DNA from: an uncultured Nostoc sp.
Lineage (GTDB): Bacteria > Cyanobacteriota > Cyanobacteriia > Cyanobacteriales > Nostocaceae
Reading direction: 5' to 3'
DNA length: 64,000 nucleotides
Assembly: GCF_964247315.1 (NCBI RefSeq)
Contig: NZ_CAXTTT010000005.1
Coordinates: 20,373 to 84,372, forward strand
Below are positions 4,744 through 33,600 of the stretch, one piece after another (position 1 is the first letter of the stretch; every line of letters begins with the position of its first letter). Below the pieces are notes generated by a model that worked only from the letters and a program-made list of their open reading frames with translations, was not told the DNA's origin and did not search any database. The translations under genes were made by a program, and so were the position numbers.

Positions 4744-5073
4744 ATGAATGACCAAAATCTCACGCCGCAAACAGATGCTAAAGAACAGGTAACAGCTAGT
4801 CCGTTACGCTGTTTTACTGGGGCGGTGATTTCTGGAGGGATGGGATTTGCAGCGTATTCGCTGATGATTGCGATCGCGACAAATTTTGCTAGTAAACCGA
4901 TCCATTCAATCAATCCATTGGTGGTGAAGATTTCTTCTGCTGTTCGCACTCTGGTTGTTGGTGTAGTTGCTTTAGGTAGCGGGATTTTTGCTATAGTGGC
5001 AATTGGTTTGTTGGCTTTGGGAGTGCAATTATTAGTGCAGCAATTAACGAAGCAAAAAAGTAGTGAAAACTAG
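4744..5073 (+). CDS. small membrane protein (DUF3082-like)
   Basis: 109 aa with two predicted TM helices. Family assignment is from memory only. Confidence 0.55.
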   Translation: MNDQNLTPQTDAKEQVTASPLRCFTGAVISGGMGFAAYSLMIAIATNFASKPIHSINPLVVKISSAVRTLVVGVVALGSGIFAIVAIGLLALGVQLLVQQLTKQKSSEN

Positions 5074-5552
5074 CAACTTGCTTTTAATCAGTAACCTAAA
5101 GCACAAGTTTTTCTAAAACAGCACGATTTACCTTTACTGTGCAAGGAGTTGATTTTACTCTTGCCAAATTTATTTAACATGAACAGCAAGTGCAGATGCA
5201 GTGCTACTGGTTGCAGCAATTCTCTGGTTTACTGCAACCCTACTTATTTTAGTCAAGCTTTTTAGGATTGATATAGACGCAAAGCGGTGAGGCAGTGCGT
5301 TGGGCAGGTTCTCCGACTTGAAGCAACTGCCGTTAGCGCAGCGTTAGTGAGGTACGAGCGTCACCCGGAGGGCTTGTCGTCAGACATCGCTCCTTGAATA
5401 GCAGATGTTGTAATTTTGGTGTATAGTATAAAATTTGACTTTAAAAAAGTTCGTTTTGACACTTTATAGACTGGCTCAATATTCACGAATTTATGCGGAA
5501 TTGATACCAGCAATACTGAAATTGATAATAGCAACATTATTTATAAGCAAAA

Positions 5553-6161
5553 TTGATGAACACAATCAAGAGATATTTTTTACCCCTTATTTTTGTGACA
5601 ATGGTTGTGAGCCTCGGTAGTTGTAGTTCTAACCCCACCGCAAGTAATATTGACAGCGCAACGTCATACCCTACCACAGCATCAACGAATAGCGTATCTT
5701 CTCAAACTCCCAGCCAAATTCCTAGCGTAGCTCAGTTAAGAGAAAAATCTCCTAATCAAGAATCTCCTAAAGAAAATACGCCTTTCCCATCAACTTCTAA
5801 AATCGCTATTAGCAAAACTACTAGCGTAACAGTATACACAAGTGATACCCAATGTCAAAAACTAATTCCAGAAAAGGTTTCAGTACCAGCCGGTGAACCA
5901 GTGACAAATGTCGTGAGTAAAATCTTAGAAAAACGAGATACAAGCGACTTTAGCTTGTCTGGGTATCGTGTCAACATCAAAAATGGCATTGCTACAGTTG
6001 ATTTACGCATATCTCCTGAGTCAAAGCGGCAAATAACTTCTCTTTCTAGTTGTGAACAGTTTGCTCTGTTTGGTAGTCTCCGCAAAACCTTAACGAGTAA
6101 TGCTCAATGGAATATTAAAGAGGTTCGCTTCACCGAGCGAGGCGAAGATATTGTTCTTTAG
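5553..6161 (+). CDS. lipoprotein with GerMN-like C-terminal domain
   Basis: Signal peptide with lipobox (VVSLGSC), S/T/P-rich linker and a C-terminal domain resembling GerMN. Confidence 0.55.
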   Translation: MMNTIKRYFLPLIFVTMVVSLGSCSSNPTASNIDSATSYPTTASTNSVSSQTPSQIPSVAQLREKSPNQESPKENTPFPSTSKIAISKTTSVTVYTSDTQCQKLIPEKVSVPAGEPVTNVVSKILEKRDTSDFSLSGYRVNIKNGIATVDLRISPESKRQITSLSSCEQFALFGSLRKTLTSNAQWNIKEVRFTERGEDIVL

Positions 6162-6332
6162 TTAAATATTGTAGTAAGTGCTGTCATCAGCTAGCTAAAA
6201 AAATTTCCTAATCTGAACAGCCACAGGACTCATGCATCAGCAGTTGTCAAAATGGTGTATGTTCTAGCCAATTGAAAACAGCTGTAAATAGTGGTATGAT
6301 TAATTTTAGCCATGAGTCTATGGTAGCAATTC

Positions 6333-6404
6333 GCGGGTGTAATTCAGTGGTAGAATGTCACCTTCCCATGGTGAACGTCGTGGGTTCGAGTCCCATCGCC
6401 CGCT
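6333..6404 (+). tRNA. tRNA-Gly (anticodon CCC)
   Basis: Folded by hand: 7-bp acceptor stem GCGGGTG/CGCCCGC, D arm ATTC/GAAT, anticodon stem TCACC/GGTGA with loop TTCCCAT, T arm GTGGG-TTCGAGT-CCCAT. 72 nt, CCA not encoded. Confidence 0.9.
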
Positions 6405-6406
6405 TT

Positions 6407-6531
6407 TGTACATTCGCTAATTATATGTCGTGATTCGCAAATTAGTGTCGTTTTTCGGAAATTAGTGTTGATTAGGCTATTTTTTAGGGTCGATTTAATT
6501 ATGCTAATTTTTTGCAAATTAATGTCGTCTT
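6407..6531. repeat. transposon end (cas12k-proximal) with four or more TnsB-binding-site-like ~20-bp repeats
   Basis: TGTACA terminus, then TTCGCTAATTATATGTCGTG (6413), TTCGCAAATTAGTGTCGTTT (6434), TTCGGAAATTAGTGTTGATT (6454) and TTTGCAAATTAATGTCGTCTT (6511). The first three are phased at 20-21 bp. Confidence 0.7.
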
Positions 6532-6730
6532 AGATTATGGTCTAATTTACACACTAGCTTCTATATTAAACTCATTCACCAGTATTTTGCTAAACCAAGT
6601 TTCAATGGGCAAATTTTCTTACTCTGCACTCAGTACTAACCCTTACCCATTGAACATAATTATAATGAAGCAACTAATCAATGAAAGTACTTGGTAGTAT
6701 ATTGTTTTTACAAGGAAATACTCATTTATT

Positions 6731-6862
6731 TCAACCTTCCATTAGCCAGTATAGCTTTTGACACTTTAGGTGATTTCCAGAATAAAAATTACCACCCAAC
6801 ATCATTCCATCGTAAGTGTCTTCTTCAGCAACCAAGCGACATTGAATTGTAATAACGCTCAT
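6731..6862 (-). pseudogene. cas12k: cas12k 5' remnant; only about 16 codons of Cas12k-like sequence remain
   Basis: The minus-strand ORF starts MSVITIQCRLVAEEDT, matching the Cas12k N-terminus as I recall it (ShCas12k MSQITIQARLIS...). It then degenerates to a stop after 43 codons. Confidence 0.65.
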
Positions 6863-6930
6863 GGTGTTCTCAGCCTTGTGGATTCGGTAACACTGACAGG
6901 GTTGTTAATTGTTTTTTTACTTCCAAGATT

Positions 6931-6960
6931 ATAGCGCAATGCCGCAATAGCGCAATGCCG
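6931..6960. promoter_or_regulatory. two direct 14-bp repeats (ATAGCGCAATGCCG x2, 16-bp phasing); candidate operator between the divergent cas12k stub and the RHH gene
   Basis: Exact repeats at 6931-6944 and 6947-6960 in the 162-bp divergent intergenic region. Confidence 0.45.
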
Positions 6961-7024
6961 TAAATGTTTTTTTACTGAGAGGCTGTGCAAAAATGAAAGC
7001 CGCAAGCTTTGGCTTCAAATTAGG

Positions 7025-7198
7025 ATGGCAGAAGAAACTAGAGAAGTTCGGGGTAGACTCCCTAAAGACTTAAAAATCGCCTTTGAAATTGCCTGTGCGC
7101 GTCTGGAATTGACCCAGACTGCGGCTTTGGAGGAGGCGATTAGAGATTGGTTGAAAAAAAAAGATTCCCCTCCTGGTGGAGAGTCACAGGGGAGTTAA
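7025..7198 (+). CDS. ribbon-helix-helix (CopG/Arc-like) DNA-binding protein, 57 aa; candidate CAST regulator
   Basis: Hand translation: MAEETREVRGRLPKDLKIAFEIACARLELTQTAALEEAIRDWLKKKDSPPGGESQGS*. Shows a beta-strand/helix/helix pattern. Divergent from the cas12k stub. Too short for the ORF track. Confidence 0.55.
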   Translation: MAEETREVRGRLPKDLKIAFEIACARLELTQTAALEEAIRDWLKKKDSPPGGESQGS

Positions 7199-7931
7199 AG
7201 GGTTATGGTCAAAAATACTAGAGTGTTTGTATGATATATATCGTAAATTTGTGTTGGTTACTGCTTTGTCAGCCTTTGTGAGAAGGCGAGGTTTACACCT
7301 ACATCAATCGACGCAAAATCGCTTTATCGAGGAAGTTGTGCGCCAAGAAGTAAAGATGTTCCCAGAACAGGCTTTAAGAGAACTTATTGCTAATGCTTTG
7401 GTACATCAGGATTTTCTAGCCACAGGTACTTCAGTGATGATCGATATGTATAGCGATCGCATTGAGATATCTAATCCCGGCATCCCACCGATTAAGGTAG
7501 AGCGATTTATTGATGAAAATCGCTCCCGCAACGAACAACTTGCCAAGCTAATGCGAATTTTCGGTATATGTGAGGAAAAAGGCAGTGGCATTGACAAAGT
7601 TGTAAGCGCGGCAGAAATGTTTCAACTACCCGCACCAGATTTTCGAGTAGGTGACACACGCACTACAGCAGTGCTGTTTGCCCATCAGGATTTCGCCGAT
7701 ATGAGCAAGAGCGATCGAATTCGAGCCTGCTACCAGCATTGCTGTCTGCTGTATGTCAGCAATCAACGAATGTCTAACCAAGCCCTACGAGAGCGGTTTC
7801 GTCTAAGTGAGTCACAAGCAGCTAATGTTTCTTACATTATAGGATTCACCAAAGAAGCTGGCTTAATCAAGGCAGATGAATCCGAATCAACCTCTACCCG
7901 CTATGCTCGCTATCTCCCTTTTTGGGCATAA
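7176..7931 (+). CDS. ATP-binding protein fragment (HATPase_c_4 / RecG-like putative transcriptional regulator), apparently lacking its N-terminal AlbA_2 domain
   Basis: RELIANALVHQDF...IEISNPG motif typical of the C-terminal half of this family. No N-terminal domain and no convincing start, so it is probably 5'-truncated. Confidence 0.5.
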   Translation: MESHRGVKGLWSKILECLYDIYRKFVLVTALSAFVRRRGLHLHQSTQNRFIEEVVRQEVKMFPEQALRELIANALVHQDFLATGTSVMIDMYSDRIEISNPGIPPIKVERFIDENRSRNEQLAKLMRIFGICEEKGSGIDKVVSAAEMFQLPAPDFRVGDTRTTAVLFAHQDFADMSKSDRIRACYQHCCLLYVSNQRMSNQALRERFRLSESQAANVSYIIGFTKEAGLIKADESESTSTRYARYLPFWA

Positions 7932-8222
7932 AAGTGCTTAAAAGCAAACCGAGATTAGTCACTCTCAAAGCCTGAAACCCTTGTAAAAACAATAAAAAAG
8001 TCCTTAAAAGCAAATCGAGATCAGTCACTCTCAAAGCCTGAAACCCTTGCAAAAACAATAAAAAAGTCCTTAAAAGCAAATCGAGATTAGTCACTCTCAA
8101 AGCCTGAAACCCTTGCAAAAACAATAAAAAAGTCCTTAAAAGCAAATCGAGATTAGTCACTCTCAAAGCCTGAAACCCTTGCAAAAACAATAAAAAAGTC
8201 CTTAAAAGCAAATCGAGATGAG
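7930..8222. repeat. 66-bp tandem repeat, about 4.4 copies, ending 6 bp before the hsdR start codon
   Basis: Period measured from the AAAAG anchors: G at 7934, 8000, 8066, 8132 and 8198. Copies 2-5 are nearly identical. Confidence 0.9.
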
Positions 8223-8228
8223 CGAAAT

Positions 8229-10583
8229 ATGAACGAAGCCGAAACCCGTGCCGAACTAATTGACCCCGCACTAAAAGCCGCAGGCTGGGGAGTTATTGAA
8301 GGTAGTCGCATCCGCCGCGAAGTTATTGCCCCTGGTCGCTTAGTTGGCAATGGTAAACGCGCTCAATCAGACATCGCCGATTATGTACTGGTTTATCGCG
8401 GTGAAAAACTCGCCGTTATCGAAGCGAAAAAACGCGACTTACGAGATACCGAAGGTTTAGGACAAGCCAAAAAATACGCCGAAAAATTGCAGACTCGATT
8501 TGCCTACTCCACAAATGGCATCGGAATCTACCAAGTAGATATGCACACAGGGGCAGAAGGCTACATCAACCAATATCCCACCCCGGAGCAACTATGGTCA
8601 GCCACCTTTAACGAAGATAATGAGTGGCGCGATCGCTTTGCTGCCATCCCTTTTGAAGACAAAAGCGGCACATGGGAAGCCCGTTATTATCAACATAATG
8701 CCATTAAGCACGTCTTAGAAGCAATCTGCCAAGGACAAAACCGGATTTTGTTAACGATGGCAACTGGCACAGGTAAAACCTTCATCGCCTTCCAACTCGC
8801 CTGGAAACTCTTTCAAAGCCGTTGGAACCTCAGCCGACAACCCACCCGTCGTCCGCGAATTTTGTTTTTAAGCGATCGCAATATCTTAGCCAACCAAGCC
8901 TATAACTCATTCTCTGCCTTCCCCGACGATGCCCTCGTCCGCATCGACCCCGAAGCTATCAAAAAACGGGGTCGAGTCCCCAAAAATGGTAGTATCTTTT
9001 TTACCATATTCCAGACCTTTATGACCGGACGGGACGACGCTGGCAATCCTACGCCCAAATTCAGCGACTATCCCCCCGACTTCTTTGACTTCATCATCAT
9101 TGATGAATGTCACCGAGGCGGAGCCAGTGACGAAAGCACCTGGCGGGGCATTTTAGAATACTTCTCCCCAGCAGTACAACTGGGACTCACCGCCACTCCT
9201 AAACGAAAATATAACGCAGACACCTACGCCTACTTCGGCGAGCCAGTCTATACCTACGCCCTCAAAGACGGCATTAACGACGGGTTTCTTACTCCCTTTA
9301 AAGTCAGACAAATCGAAACTAACCTAGATGAATATATTTACAGCACAGAAGATGAACTGATCGAAGGTGCAGTAGACGAAGCCAGAACCTACACTGAAGC
9401 TGACTTCAACCGCATAATTGAAATTGCCGATCGTGAACGCTACCGGGTGCAGTTGTTCATGGAAGAAATCGACCAGAATCAAAAAACTCTGGTGTTTTGC
9501 GCCAACCAACCCCACGCTCTAGCTGTGCGGGATTTAATCAACCAAATGAAGATTAGCAGTGACCCTAATTACTGTGTTCGCGTCACCGCAGATGATGGGA
9601 AACTCGGCGAACAGCACCTCAGCAACTTTCAAGACAACGAGAAAACTATCCCCACCATTCTCACCACCTCCCAAAAGCTATCCACTGGGGTTGATGCTCG
9701 GAATGTTCGTAACATTGTGCTGATGCGCCCCATCAACTCGATGATTGAATTTAAGCAAATAATCGGTCGCGGTACTCGCCTATTTGATGGGAAAGACTAC
9801 TTCACCATTTATGATTTCGTCAAAGCCTACGAACACTTTAACGATCCTGAATGGGATGGTGAACCCCAGGAACCTGTTCTTGTCAAGATTGCCAGAGGGG
9901 GAGAGGAATCAGGTACATACAACGACTCTATAACAGATGGTAATATAAATAGAGGCAAAAATAGAAACGAAACTACAGAAGTTCCCAACCCCAAAACCAT
10001 CAAAATCAAACTCGCTGATGGTAAAGAACGCACTCTCCAGTATCGAATGTCTACCAGCTTCTGGAGTCCGGATGGTAAACCTATGAGCGCCGCAGAATTT
10101 GTGGAACGTCTCTTTGGTGAAATTCCTGAACTATTCAGAGATGAAGACGAATTAAGAGCAATCTGGAGCCGCCCTGATACCCGTAGAGCTTTATTAGAAG
10201 GACTGGCAGAGAAGGGCTACGGGGAAGAACAACTCACAGAAATTAGTCGCCTGATTGATGCTGAGAAAAGCGATTTATATGATGTGCTAGCTTATATCGC
10301 CTATGTCTCACCACCTATAAGCCGCCGAGAGCGTGTCCTCGCTCACAAATCATTAATTTTCTCGCGCTATATCGGCAAACAGCAAGAATTTCTCGACTTT
10401 ATACTCGAACAATACATCAAAGCTGGGGTGGGGGAACTTGATCGCACTAAATTACCTCAACTGTTAGAGTTAAAATATCATACTGTTCGTGATGCTGTTG
10501 AAGAATTAGGGAGCGTTGCGAATATTAGTGAAGTATTTATCGGGTTTCAGCAGTATTTGTATTCTCAGGACATAGTAGCTTAA
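8229..10583 (+). CDS. hsdR: type I restriction enzyme R subunit (HsdR, EcoEI-like), with no hsdM/hsdS nearby
   Basis: N-terminal MNEAETRAELIDPALKAAGW nuclease domain with VIEAKK, helicase motifs MATGTGKT and IIDECHRG, QKLSTGVDA, and an EcoEI_R_C-like tail. Confidence 0.9.
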   Translation: MNEAETRAELIDPALKAAGWGVIEGSRIRREVIAPGRLVGNGKRAQSDIADYVLVYRGEKLAVIEAKKRDLRDTEGLGQAKKYAEKLQTRFAYSTNGIGIYQVDMHTGAEGYINQYPTPEQLWSATFNEDNEWRDRFAAIPFEDKSGTWEARYYQHNAIKHVLEAICQGQNRILLTMATGTGKTFIAFQLAWKLFQSRWNLSRQPTRRPRILFLSDRNILANQAYNSFSAFPDDALVRIDPEAIKKRGRVPKNGSIFFTIFQTFMTGRDDAGNPTPKFSDYPPDFFDFIIIDECHRGGASDESTWRGILEYFSPAVQLGLTATPKRKYNADTYAYFGEPVYTYALKDGINDGFLTPFKVRQIETNLDEYIYSTEDELIEGAVDEARTYTEADFNRIIEIADRERYRVQLFMEEIDQNQKTLVFCANQPHALAVRDLINQMKISSDPNYCVRVTADDGKLGEQHLSNFQDNEKTIPTILTTSQKLSTGVDARNVRNIVLMRPINSMIEFKQIIGRGTRLFDGKDYFTIYDFVKAYEHFNDPEWDGEPQEPVLVKIARGGEESGTYNDSITDGNINRGKNRNETTEVPNPKTIKIKLADGKERTLQYRMSTSFWSPDGKPMSAAEFVERLFGEIPELFRDEDELRAIWSRPDTRRALLEGLAEKGYGEEQLTEISRLIDAEKSDLYDVLAYIAYVSPPISRRERVLAHKSLIFSRYIGKQQEFLDFILEQYIKAGVGELDRTKLPQLLELKYHTVRDAVEELGSVANISEVFIGFQQYLYSQDIVA

Positions 10584-10611
10584 TTAGGCAGATCGCTACA
10601 ATTAAACACCA

Positions 10612-10830
10612 TTAATGTACTGAAATTTTGGTTGTTGACTGTTGGAAATCAATTTTTTGTACAATTATATCTTGCATCTGTCGATTGAATTGCTTGAGTT
10701 TATCAATGTTTACTCCAGACAACTGCCAATATTTTTGATGATCGTAGGTTGTAATCCACAAATGGTCATCAAACTCGACAAGAAGCAGTTCGTCTAGCTC
10801 AATTGAGTCATCCATATTTAGAGAGTGCAT
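10612..10830 (-). CDS. hypothetical protein (72 aa)
   Basis: ORF only. No recognisable motifs. Confidence 0.3.
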   Translation of the reverse strand: MHSLNMDDSIELDELLLVEFDDHLWITTYDHQKYWQLSGVNIDKLKQFNRQMQDIIVQKIDFQQSTTKISVH

Positions 10831-10863
10831 ATTAATACATCCCCAGTTTAGTAGCTGTTAGAT

Positions 10864-10964
10864 GTAGATTTCTCTACTTGTCAGTATCTAAGTTTACAAG
10901 TAGATTTATAACACTCTGAATTTTATAAATCTACACTTAATGCATATCTACACGTCACGTAGAT
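10864..10964. repeat. cluster of five GTAGAT(T/A)T motifs in both orientations, forming three hairpins
   Basis: GTAGAT at 10864, 10900 and 10959. ATCTAC at 10929 and 10946. Inverted repeat CTACTTGT/ACAAGTAG. Confidence 0.5.
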
Positions 10965-11089
10965 TAATTGATAGACAAAACAAAAGCGATCGCCACTCCG
11001 GGAAGAGGCTGCGATCGCCTTTTGTGAAACCCCATCGATGAGGTTACATAGATGATTGTACAAGAAGAGTCTGATAACCAAACCTTAGC

Positions 11090-11417
11090 TCAATCGGAGT
11101 TTGAGGAATACATTGACCAGCTTGGTGAAACTAATAGCTTCAGAAATTGAAATCGATTCAGTACCAGATGAGCTTGGAGACCTATAGATGCTGGTGAAAT
11201 TAGATGTTTGTTTTTAATACTTTCTTCATAAATTGTTTTGATAAATTCTTGCCAGTCTTTCTTCGCTAACTCGATATTTTCCCTTATCTGAGCGTTGTAT
11301 TCCTGCTGATTCTGATAATTTGTTATCATGGTATTGCTTGAGGAGGCGTTCCACCTGATGAGTAGAAACACCAAGGGTATTTGCAACAGCCTGCTTTCTC
11401 TGAGACTTAATCGTGCG
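11090..11417 (-). pseudogene. tnsB: tnsB (Tn7-like/Mu-type transposase) N-terminal remnant: 5'-truncated, frameshifted and 3'-truncated
   Basis: Frame A reads ...QAVANTLGVSTHQVERLLKQYHDNKLSESAGIQRSDKGKYRVSEE. Frame B reads KDWQEFIKTIYEESIKNKHLISPASI. Together these align to ShCAST TnsB residues ~70-140 as I recall them (AAEKLNVSLRTVQRLVKNWEQDGL...SRADKGKHRIGEFWENFITKTYKEGNKG). There is no start codon. Confidence 0.6.
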
Positions 11418-11477
11418 ATATTGACAAATAATTAGTTAATGTACAATTCATCCTTTATACTTCAATGGGTATTCTAC

Positions 11478-13313
11478 TTACCCGCCTAAAGTCCGCGTAT
11501 AAATTACCTGACCTTGGGAATCATAAAGAAAAAGGGACAGATTGGCATTCTCACCAATTACGGCTAGGGCTTCCCGCAAGATTTGCAAGTGATTGGTAAC
11601 ATCAATAGCAGTATCCGAATTCTTAGAATAAGGATTAGCCAAGTTATTTTGCCTTATTTGATCGTACTCTGGGGTTAGTCGGACAATAATTCCTGCATTG
11701 TCCATGTTAAAGGTGCAAATCCGAATTCCATTAGTACAGGTCTTATCCAAGTCAGTGCGGGTTTGTTGCAAACTACTAACAGCTTGTAGTTTTTCTTGTG
11801 ATTGTTTGAGCGCAGCTGAATAGGGTTCGATGACAGACTGAGCTTGAGTGTAGTACAAGCTATCTTGGGGAACTTTTTTAGCAGTTTGCAAAGCCTGATC
11901 CCAATATATCGCCGCTGCTTGCCATTGGTTTTGTTGTTGATAAACTTTGGCTTGCTTGGCGGTGCTAAGGGCCTGTTGGTAGGTTTTAACAGCTAATTGT
12001 TCTTTAGTAGCGCGATCGCGTACTAATACTAACTTAGGTTTATAATCTATCAACAGCTTTTGAGCTTCTTGGTATCCAACGCTATTCCGGAAAATGGTAT
12101 TCAAGGCATTAATTACTATCAGCCAAGTAGACTGCGCCTTTTGCCAGTCATTCAAGGATTTAGCAGTAGCTTCCTGCTTCTCGGCTGTAACGGCTACAGC
12201 TTTTGCCGCAGTTAGTTTTTTCAGCCATTTTTCCTCAATAAATATCTGTTGATTTACAGTGTGCAAACGGACACGATAATTCAGTAATTTACCCTGCACC
12301 AGCCCATAGAGTTCACTACTGGAACTTATACTTTCGAGTGGCGCTATAGCCTGTCGCCATAAATGTTGCCTAGTTTGTAATTCCTCTAAGCTAGATGCAG
12401 GAGTTTGAACTTTTTGTGTCGCCAAAGATCCAGTTTGCAAAGCTTTGACCACCTGATTGATTCTTTGCGATCGCCCAGACAAACTTGCTTGTAGTTCTTT
12501 TGACACCTGGTAACGAGGCGACCAACTAGGAATTACATTTAGGTCTGTACTGGCTGCTGTAAGTTGCTGTTGTACAGCTACTAATTCTTTTTCAGACTTG
12601 GCGCGGCGCATCATCTGTGGAGATTTTGTTTTTAATTGCTCGGCGTTTTGTATTTCTTTACACTCAGACATCACACAAGGGCGAGTTAATAAGTAAGCAC
12701 CACCGCCTAAAACTAAAATTCCCACCAACACCGTACCCAGTAGGATAGGTTTGACCTGGAATCCTCTCTTTGAAGCCGATAAATTCGGCACATCTGCAAA
12801 TGGGTCAAACAGTTCTTCTTCTTTACTCTCATTGATTGATGGAGAATATGTCAGAGATGATGAGGAGGATATTACTTCCTTATCTTCTTGTGCTTCCTCA
12901 TCTCCCTCTGCTACCCATCCCTCAGTCGGCTTCAATGCCAAGAAACATTTAGTATAAGGGAGTTGTTCGCCAAAAACTCTGAGGAAACATTGCACCCGCT
13001 GCTCTTTGTGGGGTGCTAGAGATTGAAGTACTTCCTCAATGACTGCAAAAATTAGTTGAGCGTCAACTATTACATCTGAGGCGTGTTGCGTTAAAATCAT
13101 TAGCTCGCCTTTATTGACGACGCACTTAACCTCGAAGACTTCAGCGGTTGAGACTTCTACAAGTAATTGTTCTTGCAAAGTTTTGGCTAAAAGCTGTAAA
13201 TCTTCCTGCTGGACTGCTACTTTCATAGAGCTTTGCCGCTGAACTTCTATATTGTTTTGATTATCTTTAAGGGGATGAAATGAACTTTTTAGGTTTGTTG
13301 AATGCAAATGCAC
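11478..13313 (-). CDS. hypothetical membrane-anchored protein (one central TM helix, large C-terminal domain)
   Basis: 611-aa ORF with TM segment ILLGTVLVGILVLGGGAYLL. An alternative start is MKVAV at 13226. Confidence 0.6.
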   Translation of the reverse strand: MHLHSTNLKSSFHPLKDNQNNIEVQRQSSMKVAVQQEDLQLLAKTLQEQLLVEVSTAEVFEVKCVVNKGELMILTQHASDVIVDAQLIFAVIEEVLQSLAPHKEQRVQCFLRVFGEQLPYTKCFLALKPTEGWVAEGDEEAQEDKEVISSSSSLTYSPSINESKEEELFDPFADVPNLSASKRGFQVKPILLGTVLVGILVLGGGAYLLTRPCVMSECKEIQNAEQLKTKSPQMMRRAKSEKELVAVQQQLTAASTDLNVIPSWSPRYQVSKELQASLSGRSQRINQVVKALQTGSLATQKVQTPASSLEELQTRQHLWRQAIAPLESISSSSELYGLVQGKLLNYRVRLHTVNQQIFIEEKWLKKLTAAKAVAVTAEKQEATAKSLNDWQKAQSTWLIVINALNTIFRNSVGYQEAQKLLIDYKPKLVLVRDRATKEQLAVKTYQQALSTAKQAKVYQQQNQWQAAAIYWDQALQTAKKVPQDSLYYTQAQSVIEPYSAALKQSQEKLQAVSSLQQTRTDLDKTCTNGIRICTFNMDNAGIIVRLTPEYDQIRQNNLANPYSKNSDTAIDVTNHLQILREALAVIGENANLSLFLYDSQGQVIYTRTLGG

Positions 13314-33208: not shown

Positions 33209-33600
33209 AGTGCGCGATATACTGAAATGAGAAAGCAAACTGAGGTTTAAGAAAGTAAAAGCTCATTTTGCTTGCGGAAAACACTAAAATGAGTAAGTCA
33301 AATGACCTTTTGCTTGCGGAAAACACCAAAATGAGTAAGCAAACTGGGGTTTGAATAAGTCAAATGACCTTTTGCTTGCGGAAAACACCAAAATGAGTAA
33401 GCAAACTGGGATTTGAATAAGTCAAATGCCATTTTGAGAAAGTAATATGTCATTTTGCTTTCTCAAAACCCTAAAATCATTACCTAAACTACACAAATGA
33501 AAATAATTTTAGAGATATTGAAAAAGCATTCAAGCATTTTGCTTGCATAAAACACTAAAATGAATGCGCGAACTACTGAAATGAAAAAGCAAAGTAGCCG
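33209..33600. repeat. tandem/dispersed array of ~62-bp units, each with a CATTTTGCTTGCGGAAAACAC(T/C)AAAATGA hairpin core (5 cores)
   Basis: GTCAAATG anchors at 33297, 33359 and 33421 (period 62). Related cores near 33262 and 33535. Flanked by TGCGCGA.A.ACTGAAATGA.AAAGCAAA at both ends. Confidence 0.85.

Follow-up and report, generated by a model that had tools for sequence, protein, structure and literature searches.

A 16-codon cas12k stub beside tRNA-Gly very probably marks the fossil of a type V-K CRISPR-associated transposon in a Nostoc genome

What remains of an RNA-guided transposon once its effector gene has been cut down to a stub, and could the remnant still hold a guide? The question is raised by a 64,000-nucleotide stretch of DNA from an uncultured Nostoc sp. 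(NCBI RefSeq assembly GCF_964247315.1, contig NZ_CAXTTT010000005.1, positions 20,373 to 84,372 of the forward strand; hereafter the window), in which cas12k, the effector gene of type V-K CRISPR-associated Tn7-like transposons (CASTs), is represented by 16 codons close to a tRNA-Gly gene. In this article, I argue that positions 6407-11419 are very probably an immobile fossil of such a V-K (Cas12k) element beside the tRNA-Gly, one that, as mapped by alignment with related loci (given here by L numbers), carries at least four deletions, D1 to D4. Cas12k, the trans-activating CRISPR RNA (tracrRNA), a guide, the transposase and the second transposon end are all absent from it now.

The stub is the beginning of a chimeric minus-strand open reading frame (ORF) of 43 aa at 6862..6731, which has an ATG start and opens with MSVITIQCRLVAEEDT. 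These 16 codons (6815..6862, minus strand) were recognized from the translation, from tblastn and from relatives: MSVITIQCRLVAEEDT is the N-terminus of the intact 633-640-aa Cas12k of related Nostoc elements, and the same first 16 residues occur in L002, L004, L012, L025, L027, L028 and L052. When the 633-aa Cas12k of L028 was searched against the whole 64 kb by tblastn, only residues 1-16 matched, at 6862-6815 with 100% identity (E 1.5e-4), and no further piece of cas12k was found anywhere in the window; the 43-aa ORF, a very short query, had no match among PDB chains at E<=10 in phmmer. The full-length effector gene of a functional V-K CAST (about 630-690 aa) is thus missing, and an earlier note on this DNA, made from the letters alone, was right that a deletion had cut cas12k to a 16-codon stub; the tblastn mapping with full-length Cas12k that it recommended turned up these residues and nothing else.

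How much was lost with the rest of the gene can be read from L025, L028, L051 and L071, four loci with an intact element at the same tRNA-Gly. In blastn they align unbroken to window 6250-6814 at 88-90% identity and to 6815-7030, which extends from the stub across the promoter region into the neighbouring regulator gene, at 92-96%, and between these two blocks they carry an extra 2.7-3.2 kb. The junction D1 therefore lies at 6814..6815 (blastn and breakpoint sequences), where it falls exactly after codon 16 and is without microhomology, and the missing interval corresponds to L028 positions 4896-7579, or 2684 bp, and to about 2.8-3.2 kb in comparison with L025, L071 and L051. On the cas12k strand, L028 reads cas12k (633 aa), a tracrRNA of ~255 nt, an array of three 37-nt repeats and an attachment-targeting (att) unit; a stretch of ~60 nt then separates the att unit from a degenerate full-length repeat, and a further ~200 nt separates that repeat from the left end, beyond which lies tRNA-Gly. 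Since the left breakpoint of D1 is ~60 nt end-proximal of the att unit, effector, tracrRNA, array and homing guide were lost together: with L028 as the reference, the loss comprises the att CRISPR RNA (att-crRNA), the 3-repeat CRISPR array, the tracrRNA and cas12k codons 17-633.

This bears directly on the alternative put forward in the earlier note, in which an internal cas12k deletion of ~1.9 kb would have left, 3' of the stub, the tracrRNA, parts of the array and a homing crRNA of the delocalized kind. The stub is indeed real, repeat-derived sequence does occur 3' of it, and the 8-nt motif GGGTTAGT is common to one of the flagged fragments and to genuine tracrRNA. However, the deletion is not internal to the gene and not ~1.9 kb, for it runs from codon 17 through the att unit and the interval lost, as present in the relatives, includes the tracrRNA, the array and the att-crRNA; together with the search results that follow, this makes the alternative extremely unlikely.

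The residual internal non-coding DNA that holds the three flagged fragments (6531..6814, minus strand) is, by its contiguous 88-90% alignment to L025, L028, L051 and L071, the normal sub-terminal DNA of this element lineage and not debris made by the deletion, as its counterpart in the intact relatives is collinear with it and lies between the att-crRNA and the left end. Only one of the three fragments is of CRISPR origin. It contains CTGGCTAATGGAAGGTTGAAAT, which had been placed at 6719-6740 and is actually found at plus 6728-6749, and its derivation from a CRISPR repeat, as originally suggested, held up when relatives and a repeat profile were consulted: CTGGCTAATGGAAGGTTGAAAT forms the 3' portion of a terminal repeat that is degenerate but has its full length of 37 nt, GTGTCAAAAGCTATACTGGCTAATGGAAGGTTGAAAT (6728..6764, minus strand), identified through the L028 repeat family, the repeat profile, the Rfam family CRISPR-DR15 and L005, and the stop codon of the 43-aa ORF falls within it. 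Counted from the sequences, 27/37 positions are identical to the L028 array repeat. A hidden Markov model (HMM) built from 215 V-K repeats gave this repeat as its sole match in 6400-6900 (E 0.069 in a 1-kb search, 8.8 in the whole window), and CRISPR-DR15 matched weakly at exactly 6728-6764 (18.4 bits, E 0.8), the only relevant match of an Rfam search at E<=10. Taken alone the repeat is marginal, and it is the conserved position in intact relatives that makes it convincing. In Scytonema sp. HK-05 (L005) only 27 nt separate it from the att repeat tail, and it is conserved there while the flanks are unalignable; with its equivalent position in the relatives, it is an ancestral terminal repeat rather than deletion debris. 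I considered whether a degenerate repeat might be a general feature after att-crRNAs and rejected this, as a repeat-HMM match after the att spacer was present in only 5/41 loci, the tRNA-Gly loci L005, L028, L051 and L071 plus L049 (the L025 orthologue did not score with the HMM), so the feature is lineage-specific.

The second fragment, TGTTCAATGGGTAAGGGTTAGTACTGAG, had been likened to tracrRNA and is found at plus 6629-6656 instead of 6622-6649. A profile of 52 tracrRNA sequences (nhmmer) found nothing in 6400-6900 at E<=100, and a covariance model built from 32 tracrRNAs (A1 and R1) had no match in the whole window; run without filters, it gave the TGTTCAATGGGTAAGGGTTAGTACTGAG stretch -2.3 bits (E 5.1), and its best score in 6300-7100 was 2.8 bits. 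As a positive control, the same model scored tracrRNAs at 207-317 bits in 10/12 loci outside its training set. The orthologue of the tracr-like stretch in intact relatives lies outside their tracrRNA, and the shared motif GGGTTAGT reads GGGGTAGTCC in L028. The resemblance is not above chance, no tracrRNA remnant is left, and the tracrRNA that stands directly 3' of cas12k in a functional V-K CAST is missing; the covariance and alignment scan proposed for this region has accordingly yielded the degenerate repeat at 6728-6764 and no tracrRNA.

The third fragment, CCCATTGAAAC, does lie where it had been reported, at 6599-6609, and its supposed role as a guide did not survive: it reads CCCATTTAAAC in the sister assembly L075, and the 17-mer that follows it has no protospacer, as it matches neither the tRNA flank nor other loci except at its own orthologous positions. 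The 17-mers after CCCATTGAAAC and after GGTTGAAAT were both tried as att or ancestral spacers and rejected, since in the window and all 78 loci they match at orthologous positions only. A separate observation concerns the DNA 3' of the degenerate repeat, where 6700-6715 (minus strand) shares an exact 16-nt identity, CCTTGTAAAAACAATA, with 7979-7994 (plus strand) in the first copy of a 66-bp tandem repeat in the cargo; a functional self-target is unlikely because the 12 PAM-proximal spacer positions mismatch (PAM, protospacer-adjacent motif), and the identity may be due to chance or shared ancestry.

Where, then, was the true homing guide of this lineage? An att-targeting "truncated repeat-spacer unit" was described by Hsieh & Peters (bioRxiv 10.1101/2021.02.06.429022), whose method, with the geometry given there, was reproduced here. 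In L028 the att unit consists of a truncated repeat tail and a 17-nt spacer, GAGGGCTGAAAG|GAATGTCATCTTCCCAA, and the spacer matches the tRNA-Gly anticodon arm, the match being preceded by a GTA PAM. For the lineage, the true delocalized homing crRNA is GAGGGTTGAAAG|GAATGTCA(C/T)CTTCCCAA; its PAM is GTA, its protospacer lies in the anticodon arm of tRNA-Gly, and it sits inside the interval deleted by D1, not at the end-proximal CCCATTGAAAC site where the earlier note had sought it. Such an att-crRNA with a GTA PAM is present in 5/5 intact tRNA-Gly elements compared (L025, L028, L051, L071 and L005) and absent from both the window and L075 in the same comparison, and the same search rule finds one in 41/44 intact loci. 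That the sequences following the flagged fragments match neither tRNA-Gly nor its flank, as had been noticed from the letters, was confirmed on the tRNA-Gly side, where none of the 17-mers of 6407-6870 matches the tRNA flank at <=3 mismatches; this also speaks against a homing guide left 3' of the stub. Of the CRISPR array and att unit matching the flanking tRNA that a functional V-K CAST would hold, one degenerate terminal repeat is left.

The target itself has fared better than the guide. The attachment site is a tRNA-Gly(CCC) gene at 6333..6404 on the plus strand (ARAGORN, Rfam), the sole Rfam match at gathering thresholds, and the protospacer GAATGTCACCTTCCCAT (6353-6369), as defined from the att-crRNAs of L025, L028, L051, L071 and L005, is intact, as is its GTA PAM at 6350-6352. 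The protospacer begins 54 bp before the TGTACA of the transposon end, the same geometry as in intact L028 and L051. This cas12k-side (left) end, 6407..6528 on the plus strand, is likewise intact: it starts with TGTACA at 6407, three bases on from the tRNA-Gly 3' end, contains four ~19-bp repeats resembling TnsB sites (about 6412-6430, 6433-6451, 6453-6471 and 6510-6528; sequence, a period-20 array in TRF and pattern searches) and aligns with the ends of many V-K loci. The idea that the tRNA would stand beside the tnsB-side end was dropped, being contradicted by the loci and by the Hsieh & Peters preprint. The spacing from the tRNA-Gly 3' end to TGTACA is not constant among loci: the window, L075, L028 and L051 have 2 bp, L071 has 8 bp and L025 has 13 bp. 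This variation suggests either several independent homing events at one site or later indels.

From the intact relatives, the element would have arrived by homing to the site just 3' of tRNA-Gly(CCC), directed by a truncated repeat-spacer unit whose 17-nt spacer matched the tRNA anticodon arm, and would have inserted between the tRNA-Gly and a conserved Nostoc gene for a 611-aa protein. Two features indicate descent from a V-K element. First, the remnant stands 3' of a tRNA gene, and the protospacer and its GTN PAM are as far from the end as is characteristic of such elements. Second, it is collinear on either flank with intact elements that occupy this chromosomal site: the left flank, the tRNA, the left end and the sub-terminal DNA match L025, L028, L051 and L071, and the right flank and a tnsB fragment match L076. 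At least four illegitimate deletions, visible by alignment, then followed insertion. D1 removed the whole RNA-guided targeting module, that is cas12k from codon 17, the tracrRNA, the CRISPR array and the homing crRNA, and fused the first 16 codons to non-coding DNA, creating the chimeric 43-aa ORF that ends within the degenerate terminal repeat of the array. The cargo, a type I restriction-modification system, lost hsdM and hsdS through D2; tniQ, tnsC and the greater part of tnsB went with D3, and the start of tnsB and the right end with D4.

Could the stub instead come from an error of assembly or sequencing, such as a mis-join or the collapse of a region within an intact cas12k locus? Many of the related loci do come from metagenome-assembled genomes (MAGs), in which mis-assembly can happen, a general consideration only. 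However, L075, an independent ENA contig, contains exactly this 43-aa ORF and shares the D1 junction, with 97.8% identity across it, while differing from the window by about 2-3% elsewhere and in cargo content, and the window shows three more independent deletions of the same element, so that an artefact is almost inconceivable. The shared junction in an independent contig means that D1 is real and heritable. As L075 shares D1 yet retains its cargo of hsdM, hsdS and a full-length AlbA_2/HATPase_c_4 gene, D1 probably preceded D2. A different outcome is seen at the same tRNA-Gly site in another Nostoc MAG (L035, 3590-3968), where the regulator gene directly follows about the first 60 bp of this left end, an independent and larger deletion of the cas12k module.

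The transposase side of the element is no better preserved than the guide side. A fragment homologous to the region beyond tniQ in L076 (orf100 and intergenic sequence; blastn, and tblastn with orf100) occupies 10827..11184 on the plus strand, of which 10827-11180 aligns with L076, and there, at ~11180, deletion D3 (blastn against L076 and its gene table) has removed tniQ, tnsC and tnsB codons ~134 to 619. What follows is a frameshifted tnsB pseudogene fragment covering residues ~57-133 (11183..11419, minus strand), with 73% identity to the L076 TnsB in tblastn (E 3e-22) and 89.5% in blastn, the blastn span being 11173-11419. It ends at junction D4 (11419..11420; blastn against L076 and L078, and sequences), which took tnsB codons 1-56, the entire transposase-side (right) end and ~125 bp of chromosomal flank, skipping L076 positions 11817-12373, which hold the right end. 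The chromosome resumes at 11420 and includes the conserved 611-aa gene at 11478-13313, which has 380 Nostoc homologues. In L076, which is the same contig as L025 (JAVRCD010000053.1), the orthologue of this gene is adjoined directly by the right end of the CAST, followed by tnsB (619 aa), tnsC and tniQ, and the intact L025/L076 element extends ~20 kb from the 611-aa gene to tRNA-Gly.

A first tblastn search with the TnsB, TnsC and TniQ of L017 and L022 had returned nothing, for the TnsB query was N-terminally truncated by the locus edge, and the complete L076 TnsB revealed the fragment. Neither TnsC nor TniQ is detectable by tblastn anywhere in the 64 kb, and Pfam searches with every ORF of >=150 aa from about 7 to 39 kb gave no tnsB-tnsC-tniQ, so the operon of a functional V-K CAST is missing. 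A search for the second transposon end with three patterns, allowing up to 3 mismatches, was empty because D4 deleted the right end; of the two Tn7-like ends with TnsB-binding repeats that a functional element has, the left is intact at 6407-6528 and the right is absent. Two side observations concern this boundary. The ~20 kb CAST of L025/L076 has an identical 14-bp sequence, GTTACAGATTCTAG, on either side and not a 5-bp target-site duplication. Also, 11421-11446 on the minus strand reads TGTACATTAACTAATTATTTGTCAAT, which resembles a Tn7-type terminus and lies in the chromosomal flank beside the 611-aa gene; it recurs at L076 11792-11817, where it is outside the real right end of the intact CAST, and at L078 11780-11805, is also present in a Nostoc genome (the Lobaria pulmonaria cyanobiont) without a CAST at that spot, and may be a relic of an older occupant.

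With no effector, tracrRNA, guide or transposase and with a single end, I infer that the segment cannot move, nor be mobilised in trans. Set against a functional type V-K CAST, as far as its 2021 description is given in PMC9798831, the window shares a TGTACA end with TnsB-site repeats beside a tRNA, the protospacer and GTA PAM geometry, the identical 16 codons, a small divergent regulator, a cargo that is a defence system (type I restriction-modification) and a fragment of tnsB. Unlike such an element, it is without Cas12k beyond codon 16, tracrRNA, array, att-crRNA, tnsC, tniQ and right end, and its tnsB is a relic of ~78 frameshifted codons, not a working member. Several considerations weigh against so final a verdict: some RNA could still come from the stub locus; Cas12k and tracrRNA could, in principle, be supplied in trans by a second intact CAST elsewhere in the genome; the sizes and breakpoints of the deletions are deduced from relatives that are 88-97% identical and not from the true ancestor; cargo varies among relatives (10612-10830, for example, differs from L075), so part of D2 or D3 could be cargo replacement; and the conservation of the degenerate repeat between Nostoc and Scytonema despite unalignable flanks hints at a function in intact elements.

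Next to the stub, the control of cas12k has outlived the gene. An intact ribbon-helix-helix (RHH, Arc-type) regulator of 57 aa (7025..7198, plus strand; Pfam 56B_RHH, E 8e-16) is divergent from the stub, which is the position of the small RHH gene divergently upstream of cas12k that characterizes Arc-type regulators, and the divergent control region between them (6863..7024) is retained with 96% identity to L028 (sequence, TRF). By inspection, the minus strand reads TATAAT at 6933-6928, and two direct copies of ATAGCGCAATGCCG (6931-6944 and 6947-6960) overlap this motif as a likely operator; a promoter and terminator scan of 6400-7250 gave nothing above chance. With both the gene of the Arc-type repressor and the promoter region of cas12k intact, the stub may still yield a short transcript or peptide devoid of function, and a repressed transcript is plausible. 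Arc-type regulators upstream of cas12k have been described (PMC9938897), and the window protein is like the Arc_1 and Arc_2 repressors of V-K CASTs as a group (PMC9938897; PMC12416283) in being a 57-aa RHH protein encoded upstream of cas12k in reverse orientation, in belonging to Pfam 56B_RHH and in having 71 cyanobacterial homologues that are mostly found beside cas12k, as is the case in at least 49 loci. The setting is unlike theirs in that the gene it would normally target is a 16-codon stub.

The regulator also offers a way to ask how common such decay is. Used to scan one genome per species, the RHH protein yielded 74 loci, of which 71 are cyanobacterial and nearly all from Nostocales. 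A gene of 576-768 aa, almost always beginning MSVITIQCRLVAEE, stands divergently upstream of the RHH gene in 49/71 cyanobacterial loci, and in ~22/71 cas12k is truncated or missing. This agrees with the literature: Hsieh & Peters (bioRxiv 10.1101/2021.02.06.429022) found only 152/282 cas12k genes with a tnsBCQ operon nearby and blamed inactivation and degradation of the elements, and Ziemann et al. (2023, PMC9938897) reported degenerated cas12k beside CvkR or Arc regulators. The window is like these catalogued degraded elements (130/282 without tnsBCQ in the former survey; PMC9938897) in keeping a regulator, a left end and a tRNA beside a degenerated cas12k, and L016, L031, L035, L045, L062 and L067 are independent examples of such decay among the loci fetched. 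It has decayed further than most catalogued cases, its cas12k being down to 16 codons, which searches requiring >=500 aa would miss, and it differs from them in that its four deletions are mapped to the base or nearly so. Deletion of guide machinery, transposase genes and one end is an ordinary fate for V-K elements, and this is a fossil of a known kind.

What has been kept (left end, protospacer and PAM, control region and regulator ORF, all intact while every requirement for mobility is gone) raises the thought that the remnant is a trimmed useful module, its left end on the protospacer and its Arc repressor serving to block or repress incoming CASTs, or its degenerate repeat, with the sequence next to it, acting as an orphan guide for a CAST elsewhere in the genome. 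Target immunity through TnsB-binding ends is established for Tn7, and two assemblies that are ~2-3% apart share the D1 state. Yet retention in two close relatives is expected from neutral inheritance, the sub-terminal motifs drift (CCCATTGAAAC to CCCATTTAAAC in L075), the 17-mers after both repeat-like tails are without a target in the window or any locus, a repeat after the att spacer is missing from most other loci with an att-crRNA, the degenerate repeat being lineage-specific, and loci with still larger deletions exist, such as L035; I regard such a module as very unlikely. A narrower version, in which the fossil would be a plug whose left end, with four TnsB-binding repeats on a targetable tRNA-Gly protospacer, and whose Arc repressor would guard the site against tRNA-Gly-homing CASTs, is improbable too; if true, target immunity or trans-repression by such a plug would account for the persistence of one stub state in two Nostoc assemblies that have diverged.

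Read as a decayed V-K element, the locus is of value mainly for annotation, since a 16-codon cas12k stub, when accompanied by a left end and an Arc-type regulator, betrays a site where a CAST was once inserted, and searches requiring a long Cas12k miss such sites. Decayed Cas12k elements are already documented and what is known of type V-K is unchanged by this fossil; its four mapped deletions show how such elements die, and here the guide module seems to have been lost first, because the D1-sharing sister assembly L075 still has its restriction-modification cargo, and an orphan hsdR and a repressor gene remain. It also carries a caution, namely that short GTTGAAA-type or tracr-like motifs are not to be read as parts of a guide without comparison to an intact relative.

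The cargo that remains, 7312..10583 on the plus strand (TRF, Pfam, blastn), begins at junction D2 (7311..7312), which was located by blastn against L001-L005 and L075, Pfam on the L002 genes and the L075 gene table. About 3.7-4.3 kb is missing here in comparison with L001-L005 and others, and with L075: hsdM, a small toxin-antitoxin-like gene pair, hsdS and approximately the first 266 codons of the AlbA_2/HATPase_c_4 gene are gone, and in L002 the corresponding interval holds hsdM, hsdS and those first ~266 codons. The 3' part of the AlbA_2/HATPase_c_4 gene is left at 7312..7931 (plus strand; Pfam, blastn), and an ORF at 7176-7931, which reaches into the end of the RHH gene, extends this truncated gene in the 5' direction by chance. 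Between it and the orphan type I restriction subunit gene hsdR (8229-10583, plus strand; Pfam), TRF reports a 66-bp tandem repeat in 4.4 copies with 97% identity (7930-8219), which occurs at the same place in the cargo of L001-L005, L009, L020, L021, L024, L031, L036 and L075 and apparently varies in copy number among related type I restriction-modification CAST cargos. Other tandem repeats lie in the hydrogenase (hyp/hup) region of the window, a 62-bp unit in 2.4 copies and an ACCAATG heptamer in 11 copies (33290-33436 and 39414-39492), and many further heptamer arrays, a kind of repeat typical of Nostocales, are spread across the window.

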